Origin: a virus
IMG/VR virus record: IMGVR_UViG_3300025141_012314
Coordinates: 1-64,000 of that record
Reading direction: 5' to 3' (one strand)
Length of the DNA stretch: 64,000 nt
The notes below the pieces were generated by a model. It was not told the DNA's origin. It did no database searches and saw nothing but the letters and a program-made list of their open reading frames with translations. This document shows, piece after piece, positions 3-48,875 of the stretch (positions are counted from its first letter, which is position 1; every line of letters starts with the position of its first letter). The position numbers were made by a program, and so were the translations under genes.

Positions 3-176
3 GCTGGGATGTTAAGTGCGTTCCCAGAGGCGGAGGGGATTATGGCGGCTATGAAATACTTTGATAAGAGACAACATTTTGAACCGAAAGACGTACATTT
101 TAAAAATGTTATGATGAGACCGAAGGACGGCCATCTAGTTATTGTAGATCTCGGATTGTTTGTGATAAAGAGGTAA
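3..176 (+). CDS. 5'-truncated protein kinase-like protein (C-terminal part)
   Basis: Not in the ORF track. Frame 3 reads ...FEPKDVHFKNVMMRPKDGHLVIVDLGLFVIKR*, a D-x-H-x-x-N catalytic loop followed by DLG (DFG equivalent), typical of the protein kinase-like fold. Confidence 0.7.
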   Translation, partial: AGMLSAFPEAEGIMAAMKYFDKRQHFEPKDVHFKNVMMRPKDGHLVIVDLGLFVIKR

Positions 177-180
177 ATGA

Positions 181-207
181 ATGAAACTCCTACTTGAAAA
201 TTGGCGA
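181..207 (+). repeat. 27-bp direct repeat copy 1 (ATGAAACTCCTACTTGAAAATTGGCGA) encoding MKLLLENWR
   Basis: Identical to 675-701. Confidence 0.95.
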
Positions 208-678
208 AAGTATTTGGCAGAAGAAGAGCCACAGACACCACAGAAATGTGTTACTGTTGGCTCTCTTATCAGCCAGATTGATAAGATGCAAAAAAAAGAA
301 ACAGCGACCAAAGTTGGAAAAACCGCTTTCAGCAATCTTGTTCAATATATACCTTTTGTTGGCGGAGCCATATCAACAGGTCAGGATATTGTAGATTATT
401 TTGAAAAAACCAAAGACTTTTTATCCAGAAAAGGAATAAACTATGACAAAATTGAAGACTTTCCAATTTTAGGACATTTAAAATTAGACCCAGAGTTGAT
501 AAAAGTTGTAGAAGATGATCTTTTAATAAAGTTAGATGAAATGTATGAAGAGGAAGTTCTAAGAAAGTTAGAGCCTACTACATGCATAGATAAGATTCCG
601 TCAATAAATGATTTTATTAGAAAAAAAATTGCTATTGAAACAAAAAATCATGTTGTTATTAAAGATGAAGCCAAATGA
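181..678 (+). CDS. Hypothetical protein with MKLLLENWRKYLAE leader (candidate head-packaged protein)
   Basis: 165-aa ORF; GAGGT Shine-Dalgarno upstream; leader shared with the next gene. Confidence 0.75.
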   Translation: MKLLLENWRKYLAEEEPQTPQKCVTVGSLISQIDKMQKKETATKVGKTAFSNLVQYIPFVGGAISTGQDIVDYFEKTKDFLSRKGINYDKIEDFPILGHLKLDPELIKVVEDDLLIKLDEMYEEEVLRKLEPTTCIDKIPSINDFIRKKIAIETKNHVVIKDEAK

Positions 679-701
679 AACTCCTACTTGAAAATTGGCG
701 A
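675..701 (+). repeat. 27-bp direct repeat copy 2 encoding MKLLLENWR
   Basis: Identical to 181-207. Confidence 0.95.
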
Positions 702-1244
702 GAGTTCTTAAATGAGTCAAAGCTCCGTGTCTTTGATTTTGACGATACAATAGCAAAATCCGATTCGAACATTCACATCACAACCGACACTGGTGACAGG
801 ATCACAATGACACCAGCCGAATACGCAACGCACGATTTTAATCCAGACTATGATTATGACTTTTCAGAGTTTGATGAAGTGATTAACCCAAGAGAAATTA
901 AACAAATTACTAATATTGTTCGCAATGCAATCAATGCCGGCACAGAGGGGCGCGAGATTGCTATCTTGACGGCGAGGGCTCCGCATGCCGAAGGTGCAAT
1001 TCGAGATTACCTTGAGAGTATCGGGCTCGATACCTCGAAAATTACATTCGGGCTTTTAGGAGACTCAGACCCTGACGCTAAGGCAGCATGGGTAGTTGAC
1101 CGAATAGAGCAGGGAGCTACAGATGTATTGTTTTTCGATGATTCGGGGAAGAACGTGGAAGCTATCAACTCTTTATCCGCCCAATACCCAGAAATTAAGA
1201 TCAGAGCAAGAAGAGTAAAGTATGCCGAAGACGTGGCACAGTAG
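675..1244 (+). CDS. HAD-superfamily phosphatase with MKLLLENWREFLNE leader
   Basis: HAD motifs: VFDFDDT (I), ILTAR (II), K (III), FFDDS..N (IV). Resembles polynucleotide 3'-phosphatase-type HADs. Confidence 0.8.
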   Translation: MKLLLENWREFLNESKLRVFDFDDTIAKSDSNIHITTDTGDRITMTPAEYATHDFNPDYDYDFSEFDEVINPREIKQITNIVRNAINAGTEGREIAILTARAPHAEGAIRDYLESIGLDTSKITFGLLGDSDPDAKAAWVVDRIEQGATDVLFFDDSGKNVEAINSLSAQYPEIKIRARRVKYAEDVAQ

Positions 1245-1369
1245 GTCTGTGGTGGCAAGGACATGTCGAAATAAACTATACATTTTTGATCTGATAATCG
1301 AGAAACCGGATAAAACCGGCGCCGGGTCACATCTGGAATAAATGACTTATAGCAAATGACTTGCTAACC

Positions 1370-1378
1370 ACTATTTAT
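1370..1378 (+). promoter_or_regulatory. Candidate late-promoter motif ACTATTTAT
   Basis: Intergenic, ~35 nt before the ATG at 1413; recurs upstream of many genes. Confidence 0.5.
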
Positions 1379-1412
1379 CATAGTATACCATGGTGCGGGA
1401 GGCTGTTTTATT

Positions 1413-1733
1413 ATGCAAGATGATAATGGGTGGGATCAATACTCAAAACTAGTTTTAAAACAACTAGAGACTCTTTCTCTTACTATCGAGGATTTGAGAT
1501 CAGAGCTTCAAGATATAAAAGAGAAATTGGCTGAACTGCGTGTGCGAGAAGAGAGAATCGAAGATATCCGTACGTGGAAAAACAAAGTAGACGAAGTTGT
1601 TTCACCCACTCAGCTGAGCATGTATATCAAAGAGATAGAAGAGCTTAAAATATTTAAAACCAAGGCAGTTGCTGTATTTGCTACTGTTCAATTTATAATG
1701 GCTATAGCAATTGCTTGGCCAAAACTATTCTAA
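1413..1733 (+). CDS. Coiled-coil protein with C-terminal transmembrane helix
   Basis: Heptad-rich body ending in hydrophobic AVAVFATVQFIMAIAIAW; GGAGG SD. Confidence 0.65.
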   Translation: MQDDNGWDQYSKLVLKQLETLSLTIEDLRSELQDIKEKLAELRVREERIEDIRTWKNKVDEVVSPTQLSMYIKEIEELKIFKTKAVAVFATVQFIMAIAIAWPKLF

Positions 1734-1734
1734 A

Positions 1735-2025
1735 ATGGCGTGGGATAATGTTGACGCCAAGAAGTTTAAAGTCTTAGTTAAACAAATCTCTGGCACTATA
1801 AAGGACGCCGACGGTGCACTGACGCCCTTTCACATAATTAAGGGAACTGGTGAGATTTGGTGTTTTCAACCATCTACGAAACAAGTTGTGAAGCTATTTC
1901 GAGGCAAAGATATCTATATTCTAGATTTTGGAACAGAAGAAGATGAACAATGTCTGACCATGTCTTCAGATGGTATTGTTTTTGTGATCGATAAAGACGA
2001 GATAGAAGAAATAGGCTTTAACTAA
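1735..2025 (+). CDS. Hypothetical protein
   Basis: ORF-track frame; start re-placed at the ATG just after the upstream stop. Confidence 0.65.
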   Translation: MAWDNVDAKKFKVLVKQISGTIKDADGALTPFHIIKGTGEIWCFQPSTKQVVKLFRGKDIYILDFGTEEDEQCLTMSSDGIVFVIDKDEIEEIGFN

Positions 2026-2168
2026 TGCTGTTTACGTTTAATAACGCACCTTGGAAATATCTACTTGTGTGTTGTGGCTCTTGGGGATTATACGCCCTTT
2101 GTGGTTTTGAATTCACAGTTATCACCCTTTTATCCCTTAGTATAGTCAATGTGAATCCAAAAAGATGA
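2025..2168 (+). CDS. Small hydrophobic (membrane) protein, 47 aa
   Basis: Not in the track. TAATG overlap with the upstream stop; MLFTFNNAPWKYLLVCCGSWGLYALCGFEFTVITLLSLSIVNVNPKR. Confidence 0.55.
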   Translation: MLFTFNNAPWKYLLVCCGSWGLYALCGFEFTVITLLSLSIVNVNPKR

Positions 2169-2204
2169 ACTTTTTTATTTCCAATAGAAAATTGTGCGCT
2201 ATTT

Positions 2205-2423
2205 ATGACACATATGAGACTTGATAAAAGAAAGACAAAAACTCTAATTCCAAATGAGCCGGCAATGCGTGGAAAGACGCTTTATATACTCTACAAATAT
2301 GATCTTGAGAGCGAAGAACTGGCTTCTGATGGTCCATTTTTAAGCAAAGACGAAGCTTATGAAAAAATGAATTCTTTTCTGCAGCAAAAGGTTTGTTCGT
2401 GGGTTGTCGTCTATAATGGATGA
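2205..2423 (+). CDS. Hypothetical protein
   Basis: 72-aa ORF filling the gap; start uncertain (2205/2214). Confidence 0.55.
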   Translation: MTHMRLDKRKTKTLIPNEPAMRGKTLYILYKYDLESEELASDGPFLSKDEAYEKMNSFLQQKVCSWVVVYNG

Positions 2424-2706
2424 GAAACCGGTTTTTGGAGAGTTATCTGCCGAAAATTTAGAAGTTGGCGATATTGTAGAATGGAAAAAATGGTGTTATA
2501 AATTGCGTGAATGGCAACCTCACTATGGAGTGATTACTGGCATCAAAAATGAGATAAAAGGTAATCGAATGGTGTCGATTTCAAATGTGATGCCACTTTC
2601 TAATAGTAATCAGGTTGAGGTGGAGTTCTTTACCCCTAGCTTAAAATTAGTGTCAAAAGTGCAGAGGTCTGATCAAATAAACCCAAAGTTTGTGGAAAAG
2701 GGGTGA
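2416..2706 (+). CDS. Small KOW/SH3-like beta-barrel hypothetical protein
   Basis: LEVGDIVEW...GVITGI pattern; ATG overlaps the upstream gene end. Confidence 0.55.
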   Translation: MDEKPVFGELSAENLEVGDIVEWKKWCYKLREWQPHYGVITGIKNEIKGNRMVSISNVMPLSNSNQVEVEFFTPSLKLVSKVQRSDQINPKFVEKG

Positions 2707-2712
2707 GTTGCA

Positions 2713-2721
2713 ACTATTTAT
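2713..2721 (+). promoter_or_regulatory. Candidate late-promoter motif ACTATTTAT
   Basis: Intergenic, upstream of the ATG at 2769. Confidence 0.5.
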
Positions 2722-2768
2722 ACTAGTAGTTTACAATACTCTATAATCTTGACTTGGTTTGTTTCTAA

Positions 2769-3560
2769 ATGATCGATATTATCAACCCTATGATTAAAAG
2801 ATTTCTTCCTTATGCACAAGAGAAGATGGGTTTTAATGAACCTCCAAAATTATTCCTTAAAGGTTCTGCGGAGAACGCAGAAGATCCTTTAGGAAAGACA
2901 GCTTTTTATGATCCCGCGGGTAAAGCAATCACAGTTTTCATAACAGGGCGCCATCCAAAAGATATCATGCGCTCTATTTCTCACGAGTTGGTACATCATG
3001 CACAAAATTGTCGTGGAGAGTTTGACAGCCCCGGTGAGATGGGTGCGGGATATGCTCAAACCAATGATCATCTGCGAAATATGGAGCGAGAAGCCTACGA
3101 AAAAGGAAACATGTGCTTCCGAGATTGGGAAGATAGCATAAAGAGTACTATTTATTTTGAACATCTACAAAAAGGAGACAGTAGAATAATGTCCACAAAA
3201 CAATGGAAGAACGGAGAACTCAAGGGTCTCCTTTCAGAAGCCTGGGGTCTAAAAATGGATCTCAACAAATTAAATGAAAACCAGGACTTTGCAGCCGCTC
3301 ACCGCGGTGCCGGAGTATCATTAGAGGAATCAGAAGAACTTGAAGAAGGTGATACTGGTGCTTCTAAGGGTGATAAGGGTAAGGATAAAAATGACCCGGG
3401 AGCCAAAGACTACACCGATGGTGGAGATCGCGAGGGCGATGAGTCTAAAACCCACGAGGGTGAGAAAGATGATACCACAAAAAACGAGGGCGTCGAAGTA
3501 CGATTGCAAGAGATTGTAAAGCGCGCCATTAAACAACTTAAGGAGAAGAAAAATGGGTAA
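2769..3560 (+). CDS. HExxH zinc metallopeptidase-like domain fused to an acidic low-complexity C-terminus
   Basis: SISHELVHHAQ plus downstream MEREAY glutamate; Glu/Asp/Gly/Lys-rich tail. Confidence 0.75.
   Translation: MIDIINPMIKRFLPYAQEKMGFNEPPKLFLKGSAENAEDPLGKTAFYDPAGKAITVFITGRHPKDIMRSISHELVHHAQNCRGEFDSPGEMGAGYAQTNDHLRNMEREAYEKGNMCFRDWEDSIKSTIYFEHLQKGDSRIMSTKQWKNGELKGLLSEAWGLKMDLNKLNENQDFAAAHRGAGVSLEESEELEEGDTGASKGDKGKDKNDPGAKDYTDGGDREGDESKTHEGEKDDTTKNEGVEVRLQEIVKRAIKQLKEKKNG
3147..3155 (+). promoter_or_regulatory. Intragenic candidate late-promoter motif ACTATTTAT
   Basis: Followed by AAGGAG (3172-3177) and an in-frame ATG at 3189. Confidence 0.45.
3189..3560 (+). CDS. Possible nested in-frame product (123 aa, acidic, scaffold/core-like)
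   Basis: Own SD and promoter-like motif inside the host ORF; starts MSTKQW. Confidence 0.45.
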   Translation: MSTKQWKNGELKGLLSEAWGLKMDLNKLNENQDFAAAHRGAGVSLEESEELEEGDTGASKGDKGKDKNDPGAKDYTDGGDREGDESKTHEGEKDDTTKNEGVEVRLQEIVKRAIKQLKEKKNG

Positions 3561-3735
3561 AAAATGGAAAAGATTGCTTATCGCAAGAAGAAATGCAGCT
3601 AAAGCAGTTGTGGAAACTGTACAAGAAGAACAGCCTGTCGCCAAACCAGAAAAGGCGGTTGTACCGGCTGCTGATGAAGCGGTGGAGAAGAAAGCACCAA
3701 AAGTAAAAAAAGCCTCTAAGCCCAAAAAGAAGTAA
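3553..3735 (+). CDS. Small Lys/Ala/Glu-rich basic protein
   Basis: AGGAG SD; 60 aa with KKAPKVKKASKPKKK tail. Confidence 0.6.
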   Translation: MGKKWKRLLIARRNAAKAVVETVQEEQPVAKPEKAVVPAADEAVEKKAPKVKKASKPKKK

Positions 3736-3742
3736 ATAAACG

Positions 3743-3997
3743 ATGTCGCTAGATAAAAATTGGAGTGACTTTATTTTAGGAGAAGGTTTAGATAGGAATA
3801 TATTTACTTATCTCCACGGGTTGCAGGAAATAATCACAGCAATTAAGCCTCGTTCTATAACAGAGGAGCACCGCTTAACTTTAGCTAAACAGCATATTAA
3901 AGAAGTTCGTCGTTCTGCTCGTAAGATGCAAAACGAAATGAAGTTGTTGGAAGAGAAGCTGAATATCTTAGAAGAAAGTTTAAACGAGGGAAAATAA
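3743..3997 (+). CDS. Coiled-coil hypothetical protein with degenerate leader MSLDKNWSDFILGE
   Basis: 84-aa ORF, tightly packed between neighbours. Confidence 0.65.
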   Translation: MSLDKNWSDFILGEGLDRNIFTYLHGLQEIITAIKPRSITEEHRLTLAKQHIKEVRRSARKMQNEMKLLEEKLNILEESLNEGK

Positions 3998-6343
3998 ATG
4001 CCCACACTTTTAAAAGAAGGCAGTGCCAACACACACCTTACTCACCTCGAAGAGTTAGTTCTCACGCAAGGTCCAGCCGGCTATAAAATGGCCCGGGCAT
4101 TTCTGTTAGAACTTCTTGAAACCCTAAAGGGGAATTCTAAATCGCATGTGCAAACATCTGTTAAATGGGATGGTGCACCGGCGATGTTTGTTGGTATCAA
4201 CCCCGAGAATGGTAAGTTTTTTGTAGGAACTAAATCAATCTTTAATAAGGTTCCTAAAATTAACTACACTGAAGAGGATATTGTCAGAAACCACGGGCAT
4301 GCGCCCGGGCTTGTTGATAAATTATCGAAAGCATTAAAATATCTCCCTTCCCTTGGGATCAAAAATATTCTGCAGGGTGATTTCATGTTCGATGATGAAA
4401 TGCTCGATGTTGTTCAAATAGATGGAGAACCACACTACCGCTTTAAGCCAAACACGATAGTTTATGCGGTACCGGTTGATTCAGACTTAGGTAGAGAGAT
4501 TGGGCAATCGAAATTTGGTATTGTGTTTCACACTACATATGATAGTCTAGATAGCGGCGCTAGCTTTGGAGCAGATGTAAGCGCGCTGAACCGACCGCCG
4601 GGGATTTGGTTCGATGATGCTTTCTTTACAGATGACACCGGTACAGTAACTCTTACTGCTGGTGAAGAGAAGAGAATTCTTTCTTTAGTTAAAGAGGCTG
4701 ACGCGGTTAATGAAAGTATAGACTATAATAATTTGCCTTCTGCGCTTCTGAATATCTATATTAACAGCGAAATTAAAGGCGGACAGTTTTTGGAGGATCC
4801 AGAACGTTCTTTTGATGGCTTTAAGAACTGGTATTTCGAGCGTTCTGAAAAGAAAATCAGTAAGCTAAAAAGCGAGAAAGGCCGCGGCAAAGCCGAAACA
4901 AAAGCTCTGCAAGATATTCAACTGCTCGATAGCAAAAAAGAAGATATTCTTAATCTCTTTCAGGTATCTCGTCTATTGTTTGAAGCCAAAAACATTTTTA
5001 TTGAGAAATACAACAATGCTGTGTATAATACAAAGCACTTTGTAGATGATGGCTCTGGAGATCTGGTTGCGACGAATCCAGAGGGATATGTAGCAGTAGA
5101 TCATGCGGGTAATGGAGTGAAATTTGTAGATCGTCTGGAATTTAGTCGCGCTAACTTTATGGTAGATAAAACTGCCAAATTTACTGGTGAATCCGTTGAT
5201 CGCCGAAACTTTACTGTTCAAATCTCAAAAAATAAACAAATAACGAAAACTATAGCCGAGTGGTTGACAGAAATTAAGGCCGCAGGGCACAAACACCAGA
5301 AACTCCCACAAATGGTTTATAAGGACGTCTTGGCAGGTACCCCTATCGTAGACATTGTTGTTCAAGAGAACGCCGAGAGAACCATCTACAACGCAGTTAT
5401 GGACTATGCCAACAGTCTAAAGGAACAGTTCGAAGAAGAGCCTCCAGAAGACGAATGGTATAGTGATGAATATGAGACGCTAGGAGATCGCAAGTTTGCA
5501 GATCGTCCGGGTCAGACCATCGCTCTTGTCCCAGGTGCATTTAAGCCACCACACAGAGGGCATGCCGATATGGTACGTCGTTATGCTACCGGTGACGGTG
5601 TGCCAAAGGCGGACAGAACAATTATTTTGATTTCCAACCCTAAAGGCGCACTGAGGAAGCTGCCGCATGACGATTCAGAAGTTAGTGCAGAACATTCCCG
5701 ACGAATTTGGGAAACAGTCTTCTCTGATGTTACAAACCTGCCGGGTGTTGAAATACAAGTTGCAGACTCAGAGATGAGATCGCCAGTAAGCATTGCTTAT
5801 GAATATATTAGTGAAACATCTCCGCTAGATATCAAGGCGGGAGACGATATTATTTTGGGCGCTAGCAGAAAAGATCGCGACTTCATGCGCTGGAAAGGCG
5901 CCTCTGAATATAAAAAGAAGAAGAGAGGGGTTAACGTCTTAGCTGGTGAGGAATACGCTGTAGTGCCTTCTGAGCGCTCTGATAACAAACCTTTTAGCGC
6001 CAGCGACTCGCGGCAGTTGGTCAGCAATTTAGTAACCAACCCAGAAGATGTGGAATCATTACGACAGCTATCTGAGTATATTCCACAAGATAAGATCGAT
6101 GAGTTATTCAATATCCTTGGACAACCATCTCCAGTTTCTACAATAGCACAAGATCCTGTGAATGAAACATCACTTGGGGGTGGCGGACCCGGTGGGGCGC
6201 CGGGGAATGTGACCGGTTACTCAGGCCCTTTGCAATCTGGGTTGGGTAAACCCAAGAAAAAACCCAGAAAGAAAAAGAATGAAAATTTAGTTATCGTGAA
6301 CGAAGTTATGAAACTAATTATGGAAAGAGGTATACAAAGATGA
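3998..6343 (+). CDS. DUF6267-like (RNA ligase-like) domain fused to an HxGH cytidylyltransferase-like domain
   Basis: N-half has KWDG, QGD, EGYV and VKFVDR; C-half has PGAFKPPHRGH and FSASDSR; Gly/Lys-rich tail. Confidence 0.75.
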   Translation: MPTLLKEGSANTHLTHLEELVLTQGPAGYKMARAFLLELLETLKGNSKSHVQTSVKWDGAPAMFVGINPENGKFFVGTKSIFNKVPKINYTEEDIVRNHGHAPGLVDKLSKALKYLPSLGIKNILQGDFMFDDEMLDVVQIDGEPHYRFKPNTIVYAVPVDSDLGREIGQSKFGIVFHTTYDSLDSGASFGADVSALNRPPGIWFDDAFFTDDTGTVTLTAGEEKRILSLVKEADAVNESIDYNNLPSALLNIYINSEIKGGQFLEDPERSFDGFKNWYFERSEKKISKLKSEKGRGKAETKALQDIQLLDSKKEDILNLFQVSRLLFEAKNIFIEKYNNAVYNTKHFVDDGSGDLVATNPEGYVAVDHAGNGVKFVDRLEFSRANFMVDKTAKFTGESVDRRNFTVQISKNKQITKTIAEWLTEIKAAGHKHQKLPQMVYKDVLAGTPIVDIVVQENAERTIYNAVMDYANSLKEQFEEEPPEDEWYSDEYETLGDRKFADRPGQTIALVPGAFKPPHRGHADMVRRYATGDGVPKADRTIILISNPKGALRKLPHDDSEVSAEHSRRIWETVFSDVTNLPGVEIQVADSEMRSPVSIAYEYISETSPLDIKAGDDIILGASRKDRDFMRWKGASEYKKKKRGVNVLAGEEYAVVPSERSDNKPFSASDSRQLVSNLVTNPEDVESLRQLSEYIPQDKIDELFNILGQPSPVSTIAQDPVNETSLGGGGPGGAPGNVTGYSGPLQSGLGKPKKKPRKKKNENLVIVNEVMKLIMERGIQR
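6313..6321 (+). promoter_or_regulatory. Candidate late-promoter variant ACTAATTAT
   Basis: Just upstream of the AGAGG SD and the ATG at 6340. Confidence 0.4.
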
Positions 6344-7164
6344 TCCCCAAGCAAGAGCAAAAACTCAGAGAAAATATTAGACAGTTGATTGAAGTTGTTA
6401 AGCAGAGAAGAGAATCAGCTGCAGCTAAGATCTTAGAAGAAGAAGCTAGATTACGTGGCATAGTAAGGGGTCTTTTAAATATAGAGCTTTCTAACCTGTC
6501 TGAAGGTGTTACACCCGATAATGATCCCACACCTAATAAATCTACCGGTATCAACGTGCTGGAGGATCTCCTCAAAAAGATTATTCCCGTTCTGCAGACT
6601 GACTTCAAACTTCTGACAACTGATGGCTCCCAAAGACAATCGTTTAGAGCCCACATTATTAATGCGGTCATTGGTGCTCTTACGCCCGCAGAAGTAAATA
6701 ACGAGGCTGGTGATGATATTGAAGCACTTGCCGAGATTGTTGACGTCGATCTCGGAGGACCCGCAGATGCAGACAAGTTTATCGATATCCGTACAGACGC
6801 AGAGAAGTCTGCGGATGAAGAAGAGCCCGAAGAGTCTGATCCTAGAGATGAATTTGGAATGGATGGCGCAGATGAGACCGGTCGAAACGTTGCTTTCAAC
6901 GCGTTCAAAAAGATTCAAACCTCAATTATTGATTCTTATGAACTGTTGTCTAACAATGAAGACCAAGAGTTATTCTACGATTATCTTATAGCCAATCTAA
7001 AATTGTATTTTGATAAGTTCGAAGATGAGCTGTCCCCAGAAGTTGAAGAGCCCACAAACCAAGCTTACCAAGACGCTGTGGCTGATGAGGGTGGTGAATT
7101 AGAAGCGCCCACTGAAGAGGGCGGTGAAGAGTCCGCAGAAGAGGAAATTGATCTTGAGTTTTAG
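6340..7164 (+). CDS. Highly acidic hypothetical protein (candidate prohead core/internal protein)
   Basis: 274 aa, Glu/Asp-rich, multiple L/I-x-E sites (LRE, ILEE, LSE). Confidence 0.7.
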   Translation: MIPKQEQKLRENIRQLIEVVKQRRESAAAKILEEEARLRGIVRGLLNIELSNLSEGVTPDNDPTPNKSTGINVLEDLLKKIIPVLQTDFKLLTTDGSQRQSFRAHIINAVIGALTPAEVNNEAGDDIEALAEIVDVDLGGPADADKFIDIRTDAEKSADEEEPEESDPRDEFGMDGADETGRNVAFNAFKKIQTSIIDSYELLSNNEDQELFYDYLIANLKLYFDKFEDELSPEVEEPTNQAYQDAVADEGGELEAPTEEGGEESAEEEIDLEF

Positions 7165-8128: not shown

Positions 8129-10027
8129 ATGACAAAAACACTTATAATCGCAGCACTGTTAACTTTGACAGGCTGTTTTAACTCTGACAATACTGATACT
8201 GTCCTCCCTGACGACCCTATTGAAACACAACCTATAGGAAGAATTGGCGGATTTGTTGAAGACCTTTCGGGACAACCTCTATCGAATGTTTTGGTGTCCA
8301 CCGAAACTGAAGTAGCATATACCGCAGACGATGGCTCATATACGCTTGAAAACGTTTCACCAGATGATAATATCGTTATCAAATTCACCAAGTCAGGCTA
8401 CGCTTCAAACTATGAGGTTGTTGAGCTGATTGGCTGGGAAACAGCAACTTCAAATACAGCACTGATGGGTATCGGTGGCGTAGCAACCTTTAATAGTACT
8501 GAAACTTCACAGATTACTCTTGATGACGTTACTGTAGACTTTCAGGCAAACAGCTTTATCGATGGCGTTTCCGGAAATCCTTATACTGGTAATGTGATGG
8601 TAGAGATTACTCATGTCGATCCCACTACCGATGAACTTGATGCTGCGCCACGAGATCTTTCTGCGATTGGCTCTGATGGCTCCTCACAGCTTGTATCTTA
8701 TGGTATGGTTGATATAACTCTTTATGGTATTGATGGAGAAGTCCTAACAGTTAATCCAGACATGCCGGCAAACATTAAAATCCCAATTACTAATGGTAGT
8801 TTAAATGAAGATTACCAGCTTTCCGTAGGCGACACCCAATCAACGTGGTCATTCAGTCCTGAGCGAGGTATCTGGGTTGAAGAATCTGTAGGAACCATCA
8901 CTGGTGATGAAGACGGACTTTTCTTTACCTTTGAAGCGCCTCATTTTTCATGGTGGAACTGCGATCAAGGATTTGTACCTTCATGTGCATCAGGGCGCGT
9001 CATTGATTTTGTCGGTTTCCCAGTTAGAAGCGCTGAGGTTACCTGCGCAGGCGGACAAACAACGTCTACAGTCACCACTGATGAGGACGGCTATTACGTT
9101 TGTTCTGTGATGGTTGGTGATTATGTTAGCTTTACTGCCAGCACTTTTGTAGGCGGCCGCGACTGGCACAAGACGAAGGGAGCAATCTTTATGGACAGCG
9201 AGGGCTCCTCTGCTGCAGATTGTGAACCTATCCCAGATATCCAAATTGATGTTTGTCGTATTGCCGGCACCGTTAATGTGGAGAATTACGAGGCTAGCCT
9301 TAATGAAGACAGTTCAGAGACAGTAGCAGCTGATGGCTTGTCCGCAGTCTTTTGGGAACCACCCGGAGACATCTCATATTGTAATAATCCGCTTGATTCA
9401 TTGCAAGTTGGCGAATGTTGGTCAGGTACTAATGATGAAATAATCTCTAACTATCCCGAAAGCTCATGGCCTGGAATTCCGGCCTCTGCTCGCTCTGCAG
9501 GACTTTGGTTTGAAGTTTCTAATGCGCACGGATCTTATCGTATGGAAAGAACTCTTCAGGGAGTACTCCCCTTCTATGCATGGCAAACTCATAGCGATGA
9601 AAATGGAGATATTGTTACGGATAGACCCGAGTTTAACCAAGGGGACCTTCTTGCTGTCTCTGCAGCCGGTGATTCCGGGGCTTATTTTGGTCCCTGGGCT
9701 GTCGCTGACATCGCAGAGATACCTAGCCAAGTATTCTTCTCTAGCAACAGTCTGACGGCAACTGGTGGCAATCTATTAGTAGATTATACCAATGCTAGCG
9801 GAGACGATGTTTTCTTTGCCGCTGCAGCAGGTGATGAACAGGTACTTTGTAGATTTGAAGACGCCGGCGCCTTTAGTGTACCGGCTCATGCGTTGTCAAG
9901 CCTGCCCGCAGGCTTCGGAGGCGCCTCGGTCTTCAATTTGTCGCTGGAGTTAGCTCCCGGACCAGATGGGCTGCCTATCTATACGCAAATATACTCTGGA
10001 CAATCTGTGCCGCTCTCGATTGAATAA
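8129..10027 (+). CDS. Lipoprotein with carboxypeptidase-regulatory-like beta-sandwich domains
   Basis: Signal peptide with lipobox LTGC; G.V.D..GQPL..V.V and TTDEDGYY patterns; HFSWWNCD motif. Confidence 0.75.
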   Translation: MTKTLIIAALLTLTGCFNSDNTDTVLPDDPIETQPIGRIGGFVEDLSGQPLSNVLVSTETEVAYTADDGSYTLENVSPDDNIVIKFTKSGYASNYEVVELIGWETATSNTALMGIGGVATFNSTETSQITLDDVTVDFQANSFIDGVSGNPYTGNVMVEITHVDPTTDELDAAPRDLSAIGSDGSSQLVSYGMVDITLYGIDGEVLTVNPDMPANIKIPITNGSLNEDYQLSVGDTQSTWSFSPERGIWVEESVGTITGDEDGLFFTFEAPHFSWWNCDQGFVPSCASGRVIDFVGFPVRSAEVTCAGGQTTSTVTTDEDGYYVCSVMVGDYVSFTASTFVGGRDWHKTKGAIFMDSEGSSAADCEPIPDIQIDVCRIAGTVNVENYEASLNEDSSETVAADGLSAVFWEPPGDISYCNNPLDSLQVGECWSGTNDEIISNYPESSWPGIPASARSAGLWFEVSNAHGSYRMERTLQGVLPFYAWQTHSDENGDIVTDRPEFNQGDLLAVSAAGDSGAYFGPWAVADIAEIPSQVFFSSNSLTATGGNLLVDYTNASGDDVFFAAAAGDEQVLCRFEDAGAFSVPAHALSSLPAGFGGASVFNLSLELAPGPDGLPIYTQIYSGQSVPLSIE

Positions 10028-42479: not shown

Positions 42480-45400
42480 ATGTCTGAATCAAAGTTTATT
42501 AAATGGCAAGATAGAGACAACGATGGGTTAATTGACGTTTGCGAAGATGTTATAGTAGATGTCCAAGAGTCCTGTTCGGTTTGCAAGCCAGATCCATCAG
42601 CAAGCATCCCTAATTGGAAAGATCTCACAATAGATGAACCTTTCTTAAACGGACAAAACTGCACATACCAGATTACGGTAAAGACTTCCCTTACAACTAC
42701 GGGTGCCCCAGAAGGATCTTCTGATCAAGAGCATACTGACGCCCTCACTGCAACTTATGAGCTATACGCAACAGATGCGATTAAATCATTACTGGCAGTT
42801 TACGAGAAAGAGAACTCTGCGGAAACACGAGATTTTGCTAGCAAAGGATTATATGCATCTAACTTTGATCTAGCCCCTTATCCCGGCTCAAGACTCAAAC
42901 TACAATATTCAATTCCAACGATCGTTTTAGATTCGATTGCCGCGAGAACAGATACATCTGATGACGAGGAAGAGGAAGAAACAGAAAACACCGGTGGTGG
43001 CTCAGTAACATATAATACCACAGAAATATATAATAAAGTAATGACCGTCAGAAAGTCCCTATGGTTATATAACAATTATCTTAAGATTTATAGGTTTGTT
43101 GAAAACGGAAACCTATTCTTTGTCGATTCAAATAGATTATTTGAATTGGGCAGCTATGGAGATTCGGGCTTCGGCGATTCTCTTATGGCAGATATCCTGC
43201 CTCAATTAGAGTCCTTCCTTAATACGAAAGATTTTAAGATACCGGGCATCGGCTGGCCTGGCTTTCAAAATGTGGTTGAGAAGTTATCATTCGTATTTGA
43301 TGGTGAAAACAAGTTGACTAAACTTGAGGTTTTCACAGCCGGCTGCGGTGACAATGCTAGAGTTTTTGAAGGCACTCGATTGCGTTCCCTAAATAGCAAA
43401 TCATCTTTTAAAGATCCGACTGCTATGGGTTATTTCATGAATATGGATAAAATGGAACAAGATCTTAAAGCAAGAGTTCCAAAGTACTGGTTAGACTTCA
43501 TCTTAGAATACACATACCCAGTAGTATATTCCCCAATAGAATCAACAAGCACTCTCCCGGGACAAGTAGAGTCTAGATATGAAACATCACAAACCATCAC
43601 AAGCTGTGTCAAAGACGCATTAATATCCGAAGGAAAAGAACTAGGACAAGATCTTCTTGACGAGACTTTCGGAATTGCTGATGCAATAATGTATAAGTTT
43701 CATCGAAACCTATGTTACAAAGACTCGGAGAAATTAGACGAAGAGCTACAAAAACTTGGATTATTTGAGTATGCTGATCCAAACAACCCAGATACTGAAG
43801 AGTTTAGAGAAAATCTATTCGCAGTCGCTCAAGCACGTGCCTATGGGTCTCTAGAGAAAAACGGCGATGGCAGCATATGCGCCATTTTCTCCTCCCGAGA
43901 CAGTAACAAACCAGAGGGTACATCTGCCGACACGCTTGACGATATGTACAACAAGCTCGACAGGATAAAAGCATGCGGTCTATCTTCGATGCTGATGTCT
44001 GCAATTCAATGCCTCTTTAAGGGGATGACGTTAGAGCAGGCACTGTCAAAAGTCACACTAGCCGCCTTAGAAGCAATGGACCCCACAGACCTATCGTCGT
44101 TGTTCATTCTGCTGCCCCCGGACAAACAAGCTCAAATTGAACAGCTTGTAAGAAAAAGACTAGCATCAGGCGATCTATTTTCTGATAATGGTGCCTCTCA
44201 ACAGTTTAGCGATGTCATGGCCGGCAAAGAAGACGCATATATTACTGATTCAAGCCAGCCTGAAGAGTTTGGAGAAGAGGATACTTTTCAAACCCCCGTC
44301 CTTGCCACTGATGATGTAAGCCTCGCTGTAGCTACCGAAAATCTATCAGCTGAAGCCTCTGGAAGAGGGCAAAGCCAGCGACAAGTTCGAACATTAGCAC
44401 AAAAGTTCTCTCTATCCGGACAACTCTCCGGAGGCTTTGGTAATAAATCGGTTGTAGGAGCATATGTACACGCCATAATAGAAGTATATCAGGATAATTA
44501 TCTGGCACTAATCGACTACCTAAACAAGTTCCCGGGCGCCGATATTATCGCGAAAGTTATAGCAACACTAGATTGCCCCGTTCCGCCTTTCTTGGGCGCA
44601 GAAGGCGGACTTGAAATAATCAAAGAAGAAGACCTTCCCTCGTGTTTAAGCATCGACGGGATAACCCTACCAAAACTAAAGAATCCATTTGGATGGTTGC
44701 CAAAACGCCACGATCTACTCGCTGCATTGCAAGCTGCAGCCATTGAGGCGATTAACGAAGCAATTCTGAGAATGATTCAGAACGTTCTCCTTAGAGCTTG
44801 CAAGACTTTGAGCAGCGCTGCATGTAAAACTGTTGAGATAGCAACAGACGTTGCGCAAGCTGCATTCACCGAAGCTACTTTTGGAGACCTTCTTCAAGAA
44901 ACAATTTGCGGTGGTGATGGGGGTGCCCATAGTGATGAAGTTTCAAGTTCGGATCAGGCAGTGATTGACGTTCTCGGCGCCTTGGGTCCCGGCGCAGTAG
45001 CATTAGCGGATGAGCAGCAAGCCTTGAACTTTAGCCACGACCTGTCGATGTCGACCACCCGCACAGAGTTGAGCGAGGCTACGTTGGGCAACCCGTCGGA
45101 CACCCTTTTAGAAATTGTGTTAAACTTAGTCAAATATGAATATCCCGAGTATGACCCGGCCTTTAACAACAAGCAATCGATAGCTGCTTTCTTTAAAAAT
45201 GTTGGAAGTTTGATGCCCATGTCTGCGCGCAAACAGCTAAGAGATCATCTGAACACATTACCAGAGGATGATCAGGTTCCCGCAAACCCTTGCGCATGCG
45301 CAACTCCTGAGCAATTTGAAGATTTTTGTAATCGTCGAACCGCGATTCTCAACGGCAGAGCCAGTCAAGTTCAGATCTCACACATGTGTGAAGTAGAGGA

Positions 45401-48400
45401 CGAACTAGGTCCTCTTGCACAAGCTCTACAATCGGGACCTTTTTCAGATATACCACTTATGGGTTCTCCCGGTTGCGAAGATGGGTTGCTCCCATTCGAG
45501 CCTAAAGAAGCAGTAGCGGTGTCTACTGCGGTCCTCGATACTCATCTTAAACAGATAAAGACAGACTTCACACAAGATATGTTGGGTTCGGGTCCCTTCT
45601 TTGAATCAGATTGGGGATTGCTAAATATGGTTCTCTCTGATACTCTGGGGAACCCTTTAAGTACCCACAATAGGAAGAAGAAGTGGGACATCGGAAGAAA
45701 ACAATACGTTGATTATTATGTAGAATCCCCGGGTTGGTTTTGGAATACCTATGATGACGCTAGCGATCAAAAAGGCGGATACCCAGTTAAGGTAGCCGAA
45801 CGTCTTCAAGAACAGATGGCTGGTTCTGCGGTTGTCTACAACTCTAATAACGAAATCGCACCGGAAACAACTTTTACGAGATCATTTGATTCGCTGAATA
45901 TTGGACAAGGCCGCAACTGGTTCGACACAGACATAAATCTCACAGAACTGCCAGACTTTGGTTATGACATCGACATAGAGGTTGATTGGTCGAATGAAGA
46001 TATTAAGTTAATAAAGAGTGCAAGAAAGAAGAGCCCGGACGTGGTTCTGAAATATTATAATCACTTGGAAGGATACGGCTCCCTTATGGACCAAGATTCC
46101 TCTGTTGATTGGGCAGCTTCCCCAGAAAATCGATGGAACTTCGCATTTGACTTAGAGGTATATACAGCCGAAATGACTGATTCAGATGTTCAAGTATCTG
46201 CCCGAGCCCGTCTTGGTCCGTTTGGTCGAGTTTTTGAATCGGGGTTGTCCGGGCCAAGAAACAGACCCGGAGATATCACAAGAATTAAACTAGTAGAATA
46301 TAACAAAGTTACCGATGAGTCCGCTGCAGCAAACGCTCAGTATAGTGAATCTGGAGGTAGCGAAACAGAAGCTGGTGATACACTCCCTCCAAACATGATC
46401 ACGGATGAAAGCGCCGTTAGTGAAACAGTCGCGTTTGAGTTTGCTGCATCCGACGACTCTTTTAAGGGCGTTAGCTTGCTTAAATACCCCAAACTAGTAG
46501 GAGCTTTCACACACGAAAGTGCTTACGCACCACAGGTAGTTTTGCTGCATGAAATGATGGAGAAAAATGGGCAAGAGATTTCAATCGATGACGTAAAATC
46601 ATTTTATGATAAGAGCACTTCAGAGATGTATAACTCGTTATTGCAAACGGTTTCTGATGACAAAAACAGCGCATGGAAATATGGTGCTGAGTGGGATAAT
46701 ATAACTTCCGCTGATTTGGAATATGTTCTCGATGAGTCGACTGGCTCACCTAAATCTTATTACGATTCTGACTATAAGGAAGAAGACGGAGTATTGGGAA
46801 TAAGTGGGTATCAGTGGCAAATGAAATACAACGGAAGACCGGGACCAAACCGGGTTTATTACCTTCCTCCTGCTAAATTTGGTGGCTCTTATATGAGCCC
46901 TCCCATCTATATCGCGCCGGTACAAAATAAAGGCTGGCTTGGGTTCCTCGATGTATTATTTCCGGAACCTAGTTCATGTAAACCATCCAAGCAGGAGTTG
47001 GTGGACTTTGTTGATATCCAAGAAAACATGTCGAAGACATACCCCTACATCCCAGAAGATGAGAGGCTGAGAGGAAACACAGATTGTGCGCTTGAGCTTC
47101 CATATAATCGAATAATGGAACGCCCAGCAATTTCTGGTATGGAAGCACTTATAACTGCGACAATCAGGATCTATGCGACTACTCACTTTATAAAGACCCT
47201 AGCAACGTTTGCAACTATTAAGCCAGACTTTGATCAGAACTATAGCAATATTTTCGCTGCTTATGTTGTTGAAGATATGGAATATTCATTAAAAGATGCA
47301 CAGACTGCTTTTTGGGAGTTCTTTACTTTATTTAAAGATGAAGAATTCTGGTTTGCCTTCTTGGAACAAAGTGTGCAAGCATATTCCAGAAGGATCGATA
47401 GCGACGAAACTACAGAACCTGCGCCGGCGGTACTAGCTGCCTTTGAGAGGATTAACGATTACCAAGCGAATTACAAATACCCCACACAAAAAGATTTAGA
47501 CAACGCCCCTGATGGCGAAACAGGTTGGACAACTACCCTAAGCAGCTATCGCGAAGAGAAAAACTTTGAGGCTATCCGCGACACAGAAGAGGATGCCAAG
47601 ATTATTCTTGCCGAGATGGTAAAAGAGCAGTTAAATATAATTGGCGAGAGCTTGGTGAATAACTTTGATATCATTGGGGTTGAGCCAGAGATAAACGACT
47701 TGGCACTCTATATGATTGAGCAGTTTGCTGATGGCGGCATAGATCTTAATGTAGATCAAAAAGAAATTGTGGAACAAATGCCCTCCTTCCCAACAGAGGG
47801 TGATGGGCACTACACTAATGGTGGCGAGTTTGTAACAGAAAATGCAGAAGATTATCAAGGTTATTATCACGTTGAAACTGATGCTGACAATAAAATAATT
47901 TATGTGGAAGGAGAATATCCCTCCTCGGAAACAAACAAAGTCTTAAAGCCTATGGCTGACAGAATGGTTGTAGAGATAGGGGATATACAAGATTATGATT
48001 TCACTGCCACCGGCACCAAACCGTTTGTAATAGAAAAGTATACCAGCATTAACGGAGAAAAGTATTCGACGCGCGCCGCCATGGAAATTATAAAGACAAA
48101 CGTTAGTACGTTAAACGTCTCTGATGTTTATCCTGGCACGCTAGATTTGGTAACTGATGATAGCGGAGAAGTTGTGGGACTGCAGGGGGAACTTGGTGTT
48201 CGCCACGGACTCCAGTTTTCAGTATTTATGTCGGGCAAGAAATATCCGGTAGCTGCCACCGAAGTTGATATGTTAGACACCACAATTGAGAACGCGCAAT
48301 CTTTAGACGGCGATACTAAGCTTCTTCTGTGCCTTCTCCGACAGCTGAAATCTGAGGAAGAGTTCAAGCTCCTATATCAATATATCTACGGAGTGCCGAA

Positions 48401-48875
48401 GATGGCATCCACTATCGCCGTATATAACGATGTGGCATTTTTAAATGCCATAGGCGAGAAAATGGTGACATTAGGTGATGCCACTGCTGGAAACAGCAAT
48501 ATGGAACTCAAACCCGGCCATTATGTAGACATAGATGAAAATGGTAATCCAATTCTTAAAGAAGGACAAGAAGGTTGGGACCCCCGAAGCCTCAAGGCTG
48601 GCGAATGGCTCTCGGTTGAATGGCGCAAGTGGGATAAAATCTTGCTCCGGAATTCCAAAGCTAGAATTAAAAGAACGTTTAAAACATACTATTATTCTTC
48701 CCGAAAATTCGATTTCAGCTTTGACCTTGGGTTTGATTTTGGTTGGTCTTGGACGAAGAACCTTCGTTCTAAGTTATCCTTTCCTATGGGTGCTCAAATG
48801 CTTCCTTGGTGGAAAAAGGTGAAACTTCGTTCCAATCCGTTTGATGCTAATGGGAAAATGTGTGAAAAGAAATAA
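42480..48875 (+). CDS. Giant acidic putative virion protein (2131 aa)
   Basis: Uninterrupted ORF in the baseplate block; N-terminal DxDxDG (DRDNDG) Ca-binding-like motif; function unassigned. Confidence 0.7.
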   Translation: MSESKFIKWQDRDNDGLIDVCEDVIVDVQESCSVCKPDPSASIPNWKDLTIDEPFLNGQNCTYQITVKTSLTTTGAPEGSSDQEHTDALTATYELYATDAIKSLLAVYEKENSAETRDFASKGLYASNFDLAPYPGSRLKLQYSIPTIVLDSIAARTDTSDDEEEEETENTGGGSVTYNTTEIYNKVMTVRKSLWLYNNYLKIYRFVENGNLFFVDSNRLFELGSYGDSGFGDSLMADILPQLESFLNTKDFKIPGIGWPGFQNVVEKLSFVFDGENKLTKLEVFTAGCGDNARVFEGTRLRSLNSKSSFKDPTAMGYFMNMDKMEQDLKARVPKYWLDFILEYTYPVVYSPIESTSTLPGQVESRYETSQTITSCVKDALISEGKELGQDLLDETFGIADAIMYKFHRNLCYKDSEKLDEELQKLGLFEYADPNNPDTEEFRENLFAVAQARAYGSLEKNGDGSICAIFSSRDSNKPEGTSADTLDDMYNKLDRIKACGLSSMLMSAIQCLFKGMTLEQALSKVTLAALEAMDPTDLSSLFILLPPDKQAQIEQLVRKRLASGDLFSDNGASQQFSDVMAGKEDAYITDSSQPEEFGEEDTFQTPVLATDDVSLAVATENLSAEASGRGQSQRQVRTLAQKFSLSGQLSGGFGNKSVVGAYVHAIIEVYQDNYLALIDYLNKFPGADIIAKVIATLDCPVPPFLGAEGGLEIIKEEDLPSCLSIDGITLPKLKNPFGWLPKRHDLLAALQAAAIEAINEAILRMIQNVLLRACKTLSSAACKTVEIATDVAQAAFTEATFGDLLQETICGGDGGAHSDEVSSSDQAVIDVLGALGPGAVALADEQQALNFSHDLSMSTTRTELSEATLGNPSDTLLEIVLNLVKYEYPEYDPAFNNKQSIAAFFKNVGSLMPMSARKQLRDHLNTLPEDDQVPANPCACATPEQFEDFCNRRTAILNGRASQVQISHMCEVEDELGPLAQALQSGPFSDIPLMGSPGCEDGLLPFEPKEAVAVSTAVLDTHLKQIKTDFTQDMLGSGPFFESDWGLLNMVLSDTLGNPLSTHNRKKKWDIGRKQYVDYYVESPGWFWNTYDDASDQKGGYPVKVAERLQEQMAGSAVVYNSNNEIAPETTFTRSFDSLNIGQGRNWFDTDINLTELPDFGYDIDIEVDWSNEDIKLIKSARKKSPDVVLKYYNHLEGYGSLMDQDSSVDWAASPENRWNFAFDLEVYTAEMTDSDVQVSARARLGPFGRVFESGLSGPRNRPGDITRIKLVEYNKVTDESAAANAQYSESGGSETEAGDTLPPNMITDESAVSETVAFEFAASDDSFKGVSLLKYPKLVGAFTHESAYAPQVVLLHEMMEKNGQEISIDDVKSFYDKSTSEMYNSLLQTVSDDKNSAWKYGAEWDNITSADLEYVLDESTGSPKSYYDSDYKEEDGVLGISGYQWQMKYNGRPGPNRVYYLPPAKFGGSYMSPPIYIAPVQNKGWLGFLDVLFPEPSSCKPSKQELVDFVDIQENMSKTYPYIPEDERLRGNTDCALELPYNRIMERPAISGMEALITATIRIYATTHFIKTLATFATIKPDFDQNYSNIFAAYVVEDMEYSLKDAQTAFWEFFTLFKDEEFWFAFLEQSVQAYSRRIDSDETTEPAPAVLAAFERINDYQANYKYPTQKDLDNAPDGETGWTTTLSSYREEKNFEAIRDTEEDAKIILAEMVKEQLNIIGESLVNNFDIIGVEPEINDLALYMIEQFADGGIDLNVDQKEIVEQMPSFPTEGDGHYTNGGEFVTENAEDYQGYYHVETDADNKIIYVEGEYPSSETNKVLKPMADRMVVEIGDIQDYDFTATGTKPFVIEKYTSINGEKYSTRAAMEIIKTNVSTLNVSDVYPGTLDLVTDDSGEVVGLQGELGVRHGLQFSVFMSGKKYPVAATEVDMLDTTIENAQSLDGDTKLLLCLLRQLKSEEEFKLLYQYIYGVPKMASTIAVYNDVAFLNAIGEKMVTLGDATAGNSNMELKPGHYVDIDENGNPILKEGQEGWDPRSLKAGEWLSVEWRKWDKILLRNSKARIKRTFKTYYYSSRKFDFSFDLGFDFGWSWTKNLRSKLSFPMGAQMLPWWKKVKLRSNPFDANGKMCEKK

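Follow-up and report, generated by a model that had tools for sequence, protein, structure and literature searches.

The viral record IMGVR_UViG_3300025141_012314 carries, near its start, two adjacent genes that begin with the same leader, a 14-residue N-terminal peptide that also opens many other genes of related viruses. The window analysed here, 64,000 nucleotides (nt) long, is the first 64 kb of this 80,341-bp viral contig, whose completeness is put at 44% by CheckV. We propose, with a probability of roughly 0.6, that the leader is a capsid (prohead-core) targeting propeptide of marine T4-like myoviruses, the counterpart of the capsid-targeting sequence (CTS) of the T4 internal proteins. 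By analogy with T4, we infer core binding, cleavage, packaging and injection of the cargo. As an amphipathic helix, the leader would bind the scaffolding core during prohead assembly, and any protein fused to it would thereby be enclosed. A prohead protease of the gp21 family would then cleave behind the L/I-x-E that ends with residue 14 (another L-x-E ends with residue 6); cleavage would free the mature enzyme inside the head, and the enzyme would accompany the DNA when the next cell is infected. The window would contribute two cargo proteins, one of 165 amino acids (aa) and a HAD phosphatase. Further cargo on the contig would be a 550-aa P-loop protein and, judging by its full-length form in relatives, the kinase whose C-terminal end opens the window. 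Together with the Shine-Dalgarno region, the leader would also serve as a patch of homology through which phages gain, lose and exchange cargo genes.

The shared start of the two genes is a 27-nt string, ATGAAACTCCTACTTGAAAATTGGCGA, identical at 181-207 and 675-701 and encoding MKLLLENWR. This identity, already pointed out in an initial annotation of the window, is far beyond chance, and the bodies of the two proteins are indeed unrelated. The string is part of a direct repeat of 55 nt, with 80% identity between its arms, that extends some 24 nt 5' of the leader into the preceding stop codon and Shine-Dalgarno region. As the genes are adjacent and the repeat exact, a simple local tandem duplication, or a chance match in this gene pair only, comes to mind. 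We give this explanation practically no weight. A third, diverged copy (MKLLMENWNKFLSE), whose codons differ from those of the window copies, is found beyond the window, 2.2 kb from the other end of the contig; it opens the gene of the 550-aa protein (genome 78291-79943, or L001:14291-15943), which has a P-loop, GGPGTGKGG, and no PHROG match. Furthermore, a search of IMG/VR with a degenerate DNA pattern of the leader returned at least 120 viral stretches. These contain at least 282 open reading frames (ORFs) with the leader, at least 249 of them non-redundant, with up to eight at one locus. The scan of the genome and its relatives thus excludes a motif confined to this pair, a possibility that the initial annotation had raised.

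Among the matches listed, the bodies of the 223 full-length proteins fall into at least 118 BLAST clusters, 89 of which are singletons. With at least 282 leader-bearing ORFs spread over at least 120 viral stretches and at least 118 unrelated clusters, the leader is not a local duplication. It is a portable tag, as had been suggested from the window alone, and not a shared domain. A Pfam family was recognised in only about one in eight cluster representatives. The folds and families identified are HAD, NT5C, NUDIX, HD, Zeta-toxin and AAA_33 kinases, protein kinases, nucleotidyltransferase, GNAT, transglutaminase-like, Tox-PLDMTX and DUF192. As for the large cargo proteins, comparison with PHROGs gave one NUDIX protein and otherwise families of unknown function; two cluster representatives match phrog_16619, a 'minor head protein'. 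In 596 gigabases of cellular genomes, the same DNA pattern matched six short contigs of metagenome-assembled genomes from scattered taxa, which are most likely mis-binned virus. We found no publication describing the leader in the literature; the string ENWRK turned up in no relevant sense, and the pelagimyophage paper is without the motif.

The conserved block covers residues 1-14 and reads M-K-L-L-[LFM]-E-N-W-R-x-[YF]-[LI]-x-E. Among the matches listed, information content is high over these positions, falls to 0.9 bit at residue 15 and is about 0.3 bit, the background level, from residue 17 onward. Trp8 is found in 100% of all copies listed, Leu, Ile or Val at position 12 in 98%, Tyr or Phe at position 11 in 95% and Glu14 in 92%. 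In a set of 100 copies outside the selection imposed by the search pattern, W8 is still found in 100%, N7 in 90%, R9 in 85% and E14 in 81%. At the DNA level, the picture is one of variation: among the matches listed, Arg9 is encoded by CGA, CGG, CGT, CGC or AGA and Leu12 by at least six codons, and the 42-nt leaders are distinct in 245 of the 249 non-redundant copies listed. Upstream of the leader, a Shine-Dalgarno-like GGAG is the sole conserved feature. Since the residues are fixed while the codons vary, selection acts on the leader peptide. The leader must also be copied as DNA, since one 27-mer is identical in 55 of the 249 non-redundant copies (22%), across genomes. Might the conserved element then act purely as nucleic acid (DNA or RNA), serving cassette exchange by recombination or an optimised start of translation, with a functionless peptide? 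The recurrent 27-mer, with its uncommon-looking codons (CTC, CGA), the 27/27 match between the window copies and the location of the cassette junctions described below would all be consistent with this, but we judge it highly improbable. In addition to the variation in codons, also seen in the third copy of this genome, conservation begins at the ATG and stops at codon 14, and the W-[RK]-x-[FY]-L-x-E core persists, despite unrelated DNA, in the variant leaders of genes outside cassettes. One such variant opens the gene at 3743 in the window, where a degenerate leader had been noted initially. It is a real variant: the homologues in more than 20 related contigs begin MSLxxxW[RK]xFL[NT]E and are nearer to the canonical core than the window's own copy.

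Tagged cassettes are exchanged between close relatives, as shown by the slot located 3' of the kinase gene, which ends in ...FVIKR. In the window this slot holds the 165-aa gene. A different gene, of 125 aa, takes its place in L088/L116, between flanks that are 95% identical; L075/L099 have no gene there (flanks 88-97% identical), and L079 has two, of 242 and 119 aa. The break in homology, and with it the cassette junctions, falls exactly at the repeat ATAAAGAGGTAAATGA plus the leader. Four states of one slot with such a break confirm that the tag is copied at the DNA level, as the initial annotation had it. The kinase itself is cut by the end of our contig. What is left of it, ORF 3-176, is 93-97% identical at the nucleotide level to the corresponding sequences of L079, L088/L116 and L075/L099, and the gene is whole in L079 and in L088/L116. 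The complete 369-aa kinase of the relatives begins MKLLFESWRRF. The hypervariable internal-protein loci of T-even phages similarly harbour different genes in the same slot of close relatives (Repoila et al. 1994, cited in PMC9026906). In both cases slot contents differ between close relatives and a conserved leader bounds the exchange. Unlike the T-even loci, the marine arrays comprise up to eight leader genes, packed into about 6 kb of a 14.8-kb locus, and their patch includes the preceding stop codon and Shine-Dalgarno sequence.

The T4 CTS, which is present on IPII/IPIII, on IPI and on the Alt propeptide (Mullaney & Black 1996, reviewed in PMC9026906 and PMC3012670), is likewise a short N-terminal peptide borne by unrelated proteins. 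The adjacent T4 genes ipII and ipIII, annotated as coding for internal virion proteins, have identical first 30 nt, encoding MKTYQEFIAE, to be compared with the 27 nt shared here. The propeptides or CTSs of internal proteins are 10-19 residues long, and the first 10 residues of IPIII are enough for packaging (PMC9026906). Targeting depends mainly on residues 4 and 7 (Tyr and Phe), and processing on residues 8 and 10 (Ile and Glu); a foreign protein joined to the CTS is also packaged and delivered, and Alt illustrates that enzymes can be cargo as well (PMC9026906). When the peptides are anchored on their Glu residue, Y4-Q-E-F7-I8-A-E10 of T4 corresponds to W8-R-K-[YF]11-[LI]12-x-E14 of the marine leader. 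The four functional positions are equally spaced, with an aromatic residue followed by a second one at +3, an aliphatic residue at +4 and Glu at +6. The likeness to the CTS that had been perceived in the window thus holds for length, for the spacing of the key residues and for the L/I-x-E end. As in T4, the leader ends in a gp21-type L/I-x-E site, the genomes encode a protease of the gp21 family, and cargo is swapped at the leader among close relatives. In the genome under study, a CTS-like pattern, [FYW]..[FY][LI].E, is found within the first 25 residues of three of the 79 gene products, against 0.35 expected, and all three are those of leader genes. There are differences too. The marine leader numbers 14 residues against 10 for the CTS of T4, has an additional LLLEN segment and coexists with a second leader class; its cargo forms at least 118 clusters instead of a handful, and is mostly acidic with many enzymes. 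Short peptides or propeptides also send cargo into HK97-fold shells in giant phages (ejection or internal proteins of SPN3US and the phiKZ group) and in encapsulins, whose signals are usually C-terminal. Those signals differ from the marine leader and have no known sequence relation with it.

A T4 gp21-family prohead protease (PF03420, E values of 1e-25 to 1e-35, above the cut-off) is encoded in all five complete carrier genomes, which measure 186-204 kb. All five also have a T4-like portal, and a gp23-like capsid protein was found in the four in which it was checked. A further 49 carrier contigs were checked; all are fragments (completeness 5-83%) and come from genomes whose estimated size is about 170 kb or above. 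The protease was present in nine of the 50 records covered by the PF03420 search. Leader carriage is restricted to large T4-like genomes with a gp21-type protease. Sequence identity between the marine capsid protein and its counterparts in cultured T4-like phages is low, at about 30%. The gene neighbourhoods of the window are common to two of the complete genomes, with 68-75% nucleotide identity (L029 = G001, L051 = G004). The best explanation is that the carriers represent a deep-branching, uncultured marine group of T4-like myoviruses.

In 14 head modules, the gene order is portal, a 273-278-aa gene, a 179-190-aa gene, a gene for a small membrane protein, the protease, a conserved gene of about 140 aa and an S21-like gene. 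Extra genes are located directly beside the protease gene, and many of them begin with leader variants (G001, G004, G038, G047 and G050; Table 1). Leaders of a second class flank the protease gene in G050, G013 and G007. This second leader, MK[IL]TKxQLKQIIKEEL, was found in 41 copies in 18 related loci, and many copies run on to [VL]-L-x-E some 22 residues in. In the genome under study, it takes the form MKITK[TAS][QK]LKQIIKEEL and is carried by three small genes interspersed among the ENWR-leader genes. It resembles the N-terminus of the conserved head-module protein of about 140 aa (MKKSELKKxLKPLIKE). In T4, the prohead-core genes 67 and 68 lie in the corresponding head region. We considered that the protein of about 140 aa might be a homologue of T4 gp68 and rejected this identification (hhalign probability 0.1%). 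The S21-like gene, a small basic one lying two genes after the protease in related complete genomes (L126:9472-9711, L127:8486-8722 and equivalents), was recognised by sequence motifs only.

Parts of the leader also recall the propeptides of head proteins. T4-type gp23 is cut after FLTE65 and gp24 after MAKINELLRE. The F-L-T-E site of the gp23 propeptide resembles the leader end, [YF]-L-x-E, and the marine capsid proteins have ELLRE at the position that corresponds to the T4-type cleavage site, as judged by eye without an alignment. As for the first half of the leader, LLLENW, the N-terminus of T4-type gp21, QLLIETW, looks similar, a soft resemblance of short strings; LIE-9 of gp21 fits the cleavage logo (PMC9026906), and the marine proteases begin M-x-K-x-LLREYYEL. 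We also observed that a string of the capsid propeptide, LL[NST]KW...LLEG, is kept from T4-type gp23 (L134) to G001-G004 (L130-L133) and resembles LLENW of the leader. One might speculate that the leader copies the capsid protein's own scaffold-contact helix. At the other end of proteins, no leader-like string was found at any C-terminus in this genome. In a relative, an 898-aa protein encoded 5' of a leader array (L088:3921-6617) ends in ...IVNTWKEFLRT, which is leader-like. T4 Alt is processed at both ends.

Of the two cargo proteins of the window, the 189-aa one had been called a HAD phosphatase, and its PHROG match (Table 1), the F-D-F-D-D-T motif, invariant at residues 20-25 among the aligned homologues, and the predicted fold all agree with this. 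Its Pfam match, to DUF2608, is just under the cut-off. It has 465 metagenome homologues; among the 120 listed, query coverage is 95-100%, and the leader is kept in all 24 of these that were aligned, followed by a variable linker and then by the first strand with the DxD. In an AlphaFold2 (AF2) model with a confidence score (pLDDT) of 83.5, the leader is predicted as a helix spanning residues 2-13; residues 1-12 score less than 50, and the model becomes confident from residue 16, where the HAD core begins. The best Foldseek matches of the model are MDP-1, the phosphatase domain of T4 Pnkp and the Legionella effectors Lem4/Ceg4, which are HAD phosphatases, with probabilities of about 1.0 and TM-scores of about 0.5. 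Because of these structural matches, the substrate of the enzyme could be a protein or a nucleic-acid end. The 165-aa protein matched nothing in Pfam, PHROG or the GenBank phages, and the protein Atlas gave only leads below 0.85.

Several observations nevertheless weigh against a capsid-targeting role. Beyond M-K, the leader has only the pattern [YW]xx[FY][IL]xE in common with MKTYQEFIAE of T4. To judge from the sequences, their similarity is one of pattern and spacing, with homology not demonstrable because the peptide is too short for a homology test. Part of the conservation of the leader reflects DNA copying. The cargo has a median isoelectric point (pI) of 5.0, with 83% of the proteins below 7, whereas the T-even internal proteins are described as basic (PMC9026906). 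With this acidity and a size range of 18 to 837 aa among the matches listed, the marine cargo is unlike the small, basic, DNA-associated internal proteins of T4. The window's own contig has no head genes, and the link with a gp21-type protease therefore rests on relatives. The main clusters of leader genes lie a long way from the head module. As a guide to expression timing, the T4 late-promoter motif TATAAATA is uninformative: it occurs five times in forward and ten times in reverse orientation, which is no enrichment here, and the capsid genes of four relatives do not have it upstream. Nor is there a cultured member: a tblastn search of GenBank phages (50,697 records) with both window proteins and a 21-aa leader query gave no match, and a pattern search of the nearest GenBank records (LR756508, Microcystis phage Mel-JY01 and Flavobacterium phage immuto) found no leader. 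Finally, much of the recognisable cargo belongs to nucleotide metabolism, and such enzymes could also plausibly be ordinary intracellular proteins that assemble on another hub.

The main alternative builds on this last point. The leader would be a docking helix for a non-virion assembly, such as a nucleotide-metabolism or replication complex or a host target, and would gather enzymes on one hub in the infected cell. The abundance of nucleotide and RNA-end enzymes and of kinases among the recognisable cargo (NT5C, NUDIX, HD, AAA_33, PNK-like HAD) fits this idea. So do the acidity of the cargo, unlike that of the T4 internal proteins, the distance between the main leader clusters and the head genes, and the prediction of the leader as a free amphipathic helix. 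A docking helix leaves unexplained, however, why Glu14 is preceded by L/I at -2, why the spacing matches that of the T4 CTS and why leader-like genes recur beside the prohead protease, and we identified no candidate hub. We regard it as unlikely. Less probable still is a removable or regulatory propeptide apart from packaging, be it a tag for degradation or timing, or an inhibitory pro-sequence silencing, until it is processed, toxic enzymes such as Zeta-toxin-like kinases or a papain-like toxin domain. That some cargo belongs to toxin-type families (Zeta_toxin, Tox-PLDMTX) and that the tag ends in a protease-like site would suit such a role. Yet most of the cargo is without toxin similarity, one identical 14-mer is an unlikely inhibitor of more than 100 unrelated folds, and the HAD model shows no confident contact between leader and active site. 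Moreover, the site points to a single protease, that of the prohead, which is active inside proheads.

The capsid-targeting interpretation that the initial annotation had put forward thus draws support from the portability of the tag, its movement at the DNA level, the T4-like affiliation of its carriers and the match with the CTS, and two of the original arguments fall away. The 781-aa protein encoded in the window had been counted as cargo on account of its start, MPTLLKE; it lacks the W..[FY]L.E core, and the residues before the DUF6267 start (ANTHLTHLEEL) vary among homologues. An abundance of L/I-x-E sites had also been read into the acidic neighbours. Compared with composition-matched shuffles, the ORF at 2769 has 6 sites where 3.3 are expected (P = 0.09), and that at 6340 has 6 where 7.0 are expected (P = 0.74).

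Table 1. Leader copies, leader genes and leader-like N-termini, with their positions in the window (or in the genome or locus named) and their context.
Feature	Position	Strand	Sequence or motif	Context
Leader copy 1, 14 codons	181..222	+	MKLLLENWRKYLAE	Opens gene 181-678
Leader copy 2	675..716	+	MKLLLENWREFLNE	Opens gene 675-1244; ATG overlaps stop of gene 1 (ATGA)
Direct repeat, upstream arm	157..211	+		End of preceding gene, Shine-Dalgarno region and leader; pairs with 651-705
Direct repeat, downstream arm	651..705	+		Pairs with 157-211
Kinase, C-terminal end	3..176	+	MKLLFESWRRFYSD (leader variant at start of full 369-aa form in relatives)	Gene cut by contig end; kinase PHROG matches
Cargo gene 1, 165-aa protein	181..678	+		Exchangeable cassette
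Cargo gene 2, 189-aa HAD-superfamily phosphatase	675..1244	+	Catalytic DxD at D21/D23	phrog_415, 1.3e-9
84-aa coiled-coil-like conserved protein with variant leader	3743..3997	+	MSLDKNWSDFILGE	Syntenic with DUF6267 gene; not a cassette
Second-class leader gene	L001:13866-14294 (genome 77866)			
Second-class leader gene	L001:15956-16216 (genome 79956)			
Second-class leader gene	L001:16218-16341 (genome 80218)			
Leader-like N-termini	G001		MKLLLEHWNRYLQE; ..ATWRTFLNE	Beside protease
Leader-like N-terminus	G004		..DSWKNYLVE	Beside protease
Leader-like N-terminus	G038		..NGWRGYLLQE	Beside protease
Leader-like N-terminus	G047		..ILENWNSFV	Beside protease
Leader-like N-terminus	G050		MKVIMENWDRFILQE	Beside protease

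The contig that harbours the window belongs to a large myovirus, with all its genes on the + strand. It has gp25-like and gp6-like baseplate wedge genes, PhoH and a long block of sugar and glycosyltransferase genes. Two of its ORFs encode proteins of 2131 and 3758 aa; these giant ORFs (42480-48875 and 52702-63978) lie on either side of the gp25-like and gp6-like genes and presumably code for structural, VrlC-like or fibre proteins. The sugar block occupies about 22 kb (16472-38322) and precedes the tail and baseplate block. Its glycosyltransferase, epimerase/dehydratase and other sugar-nucleotide genes were assigned on the sole basis of N-terminal motifs, and it recalls the 'host recognition cluster' of pelagimyophages (PMC7029224). 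We also considered a circular contig, as the ends of the 80,341-bp sequence join in frame. The first ORF is nevertheless the C-terminal end of the 369-aa kinase; because this kinase is whole in relatives and the contig is 44% complete according to CheckV, the junction is not real, and circularity was rejected.

Closer to the leader genes, the 781-aa protein (3998-6343) is a fusion. Its DUF6267 part, with a KWDG motif of the ligase/capping type, covers residues 11-391, and its C-terminal part has a PHRGH nucleotidyltransferase motif (HxGH-type) and a Gly-rich/Lys-rich tail. Its gene adjoins that of the 84-aa protein in many related contigs. The 263-aa protein encoded at 2769-3560 has a zincin-like HELVHH motif, a weak match to DUF6647 below the cut-off and a very acidic tail rich in Gly, Asp and Lys; it is kept in many relatives, with 65-82% nucleotide identity. 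A 632-aa predicted lipoprotein (8129-10027), with a signal peptide ending in Cys and CarboxypepD_reg-like domains, is encoded where the GC content rises locally. Exported proteins are unusual for the early or auxiliary region of a phage.

Our findings raise the broader possibility that abundant T4-like phages of the ocean carry inside their heads a large, fast-changing kit of ready-made enzymes, namely kinases, phosphatases, nucleotidyltransferases, acetyltransferases, proteins with toxin-type domains and about 100 unknown families. Two classes of exchangeable leader, MKLLLENWRxYLxE and MKITKxQLKQIIKEEL...LxE, would serve as its addresses; the first of them may combine features of the protease propeptide (LL-x-E-x-W) with those of the internal-protein CTS. 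We hold this picture tentatively, at somewhat less than even odds. If it is correct, sequence alone could reveal which proteins uncultured phages inject, and a first leader that combines protease-propeptide and CTS features would mean that it copies the mode by which head-core proteins are recruited. The behaviour of the cassettes shows the turnover of such a kit between close relatives.

Should the tag load the head, a simple pattern would name the injected proteins of uncultured marine phages, most of which are without known function. As many of the cargo proteins look like host-modifying enzymes or enzymes that process nucleic-acid ends, they are prime candidates for early takeover and counter-defence factors. 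The leader would also provide a second natural targeting peptide for engineered protein delivery by phage heads. For the biology of these viruses, a targeting role of the leader would widen the internal-protein principle of T4 from a few small basic proteins of coliphages to more than 100 families in an ocean lineage.

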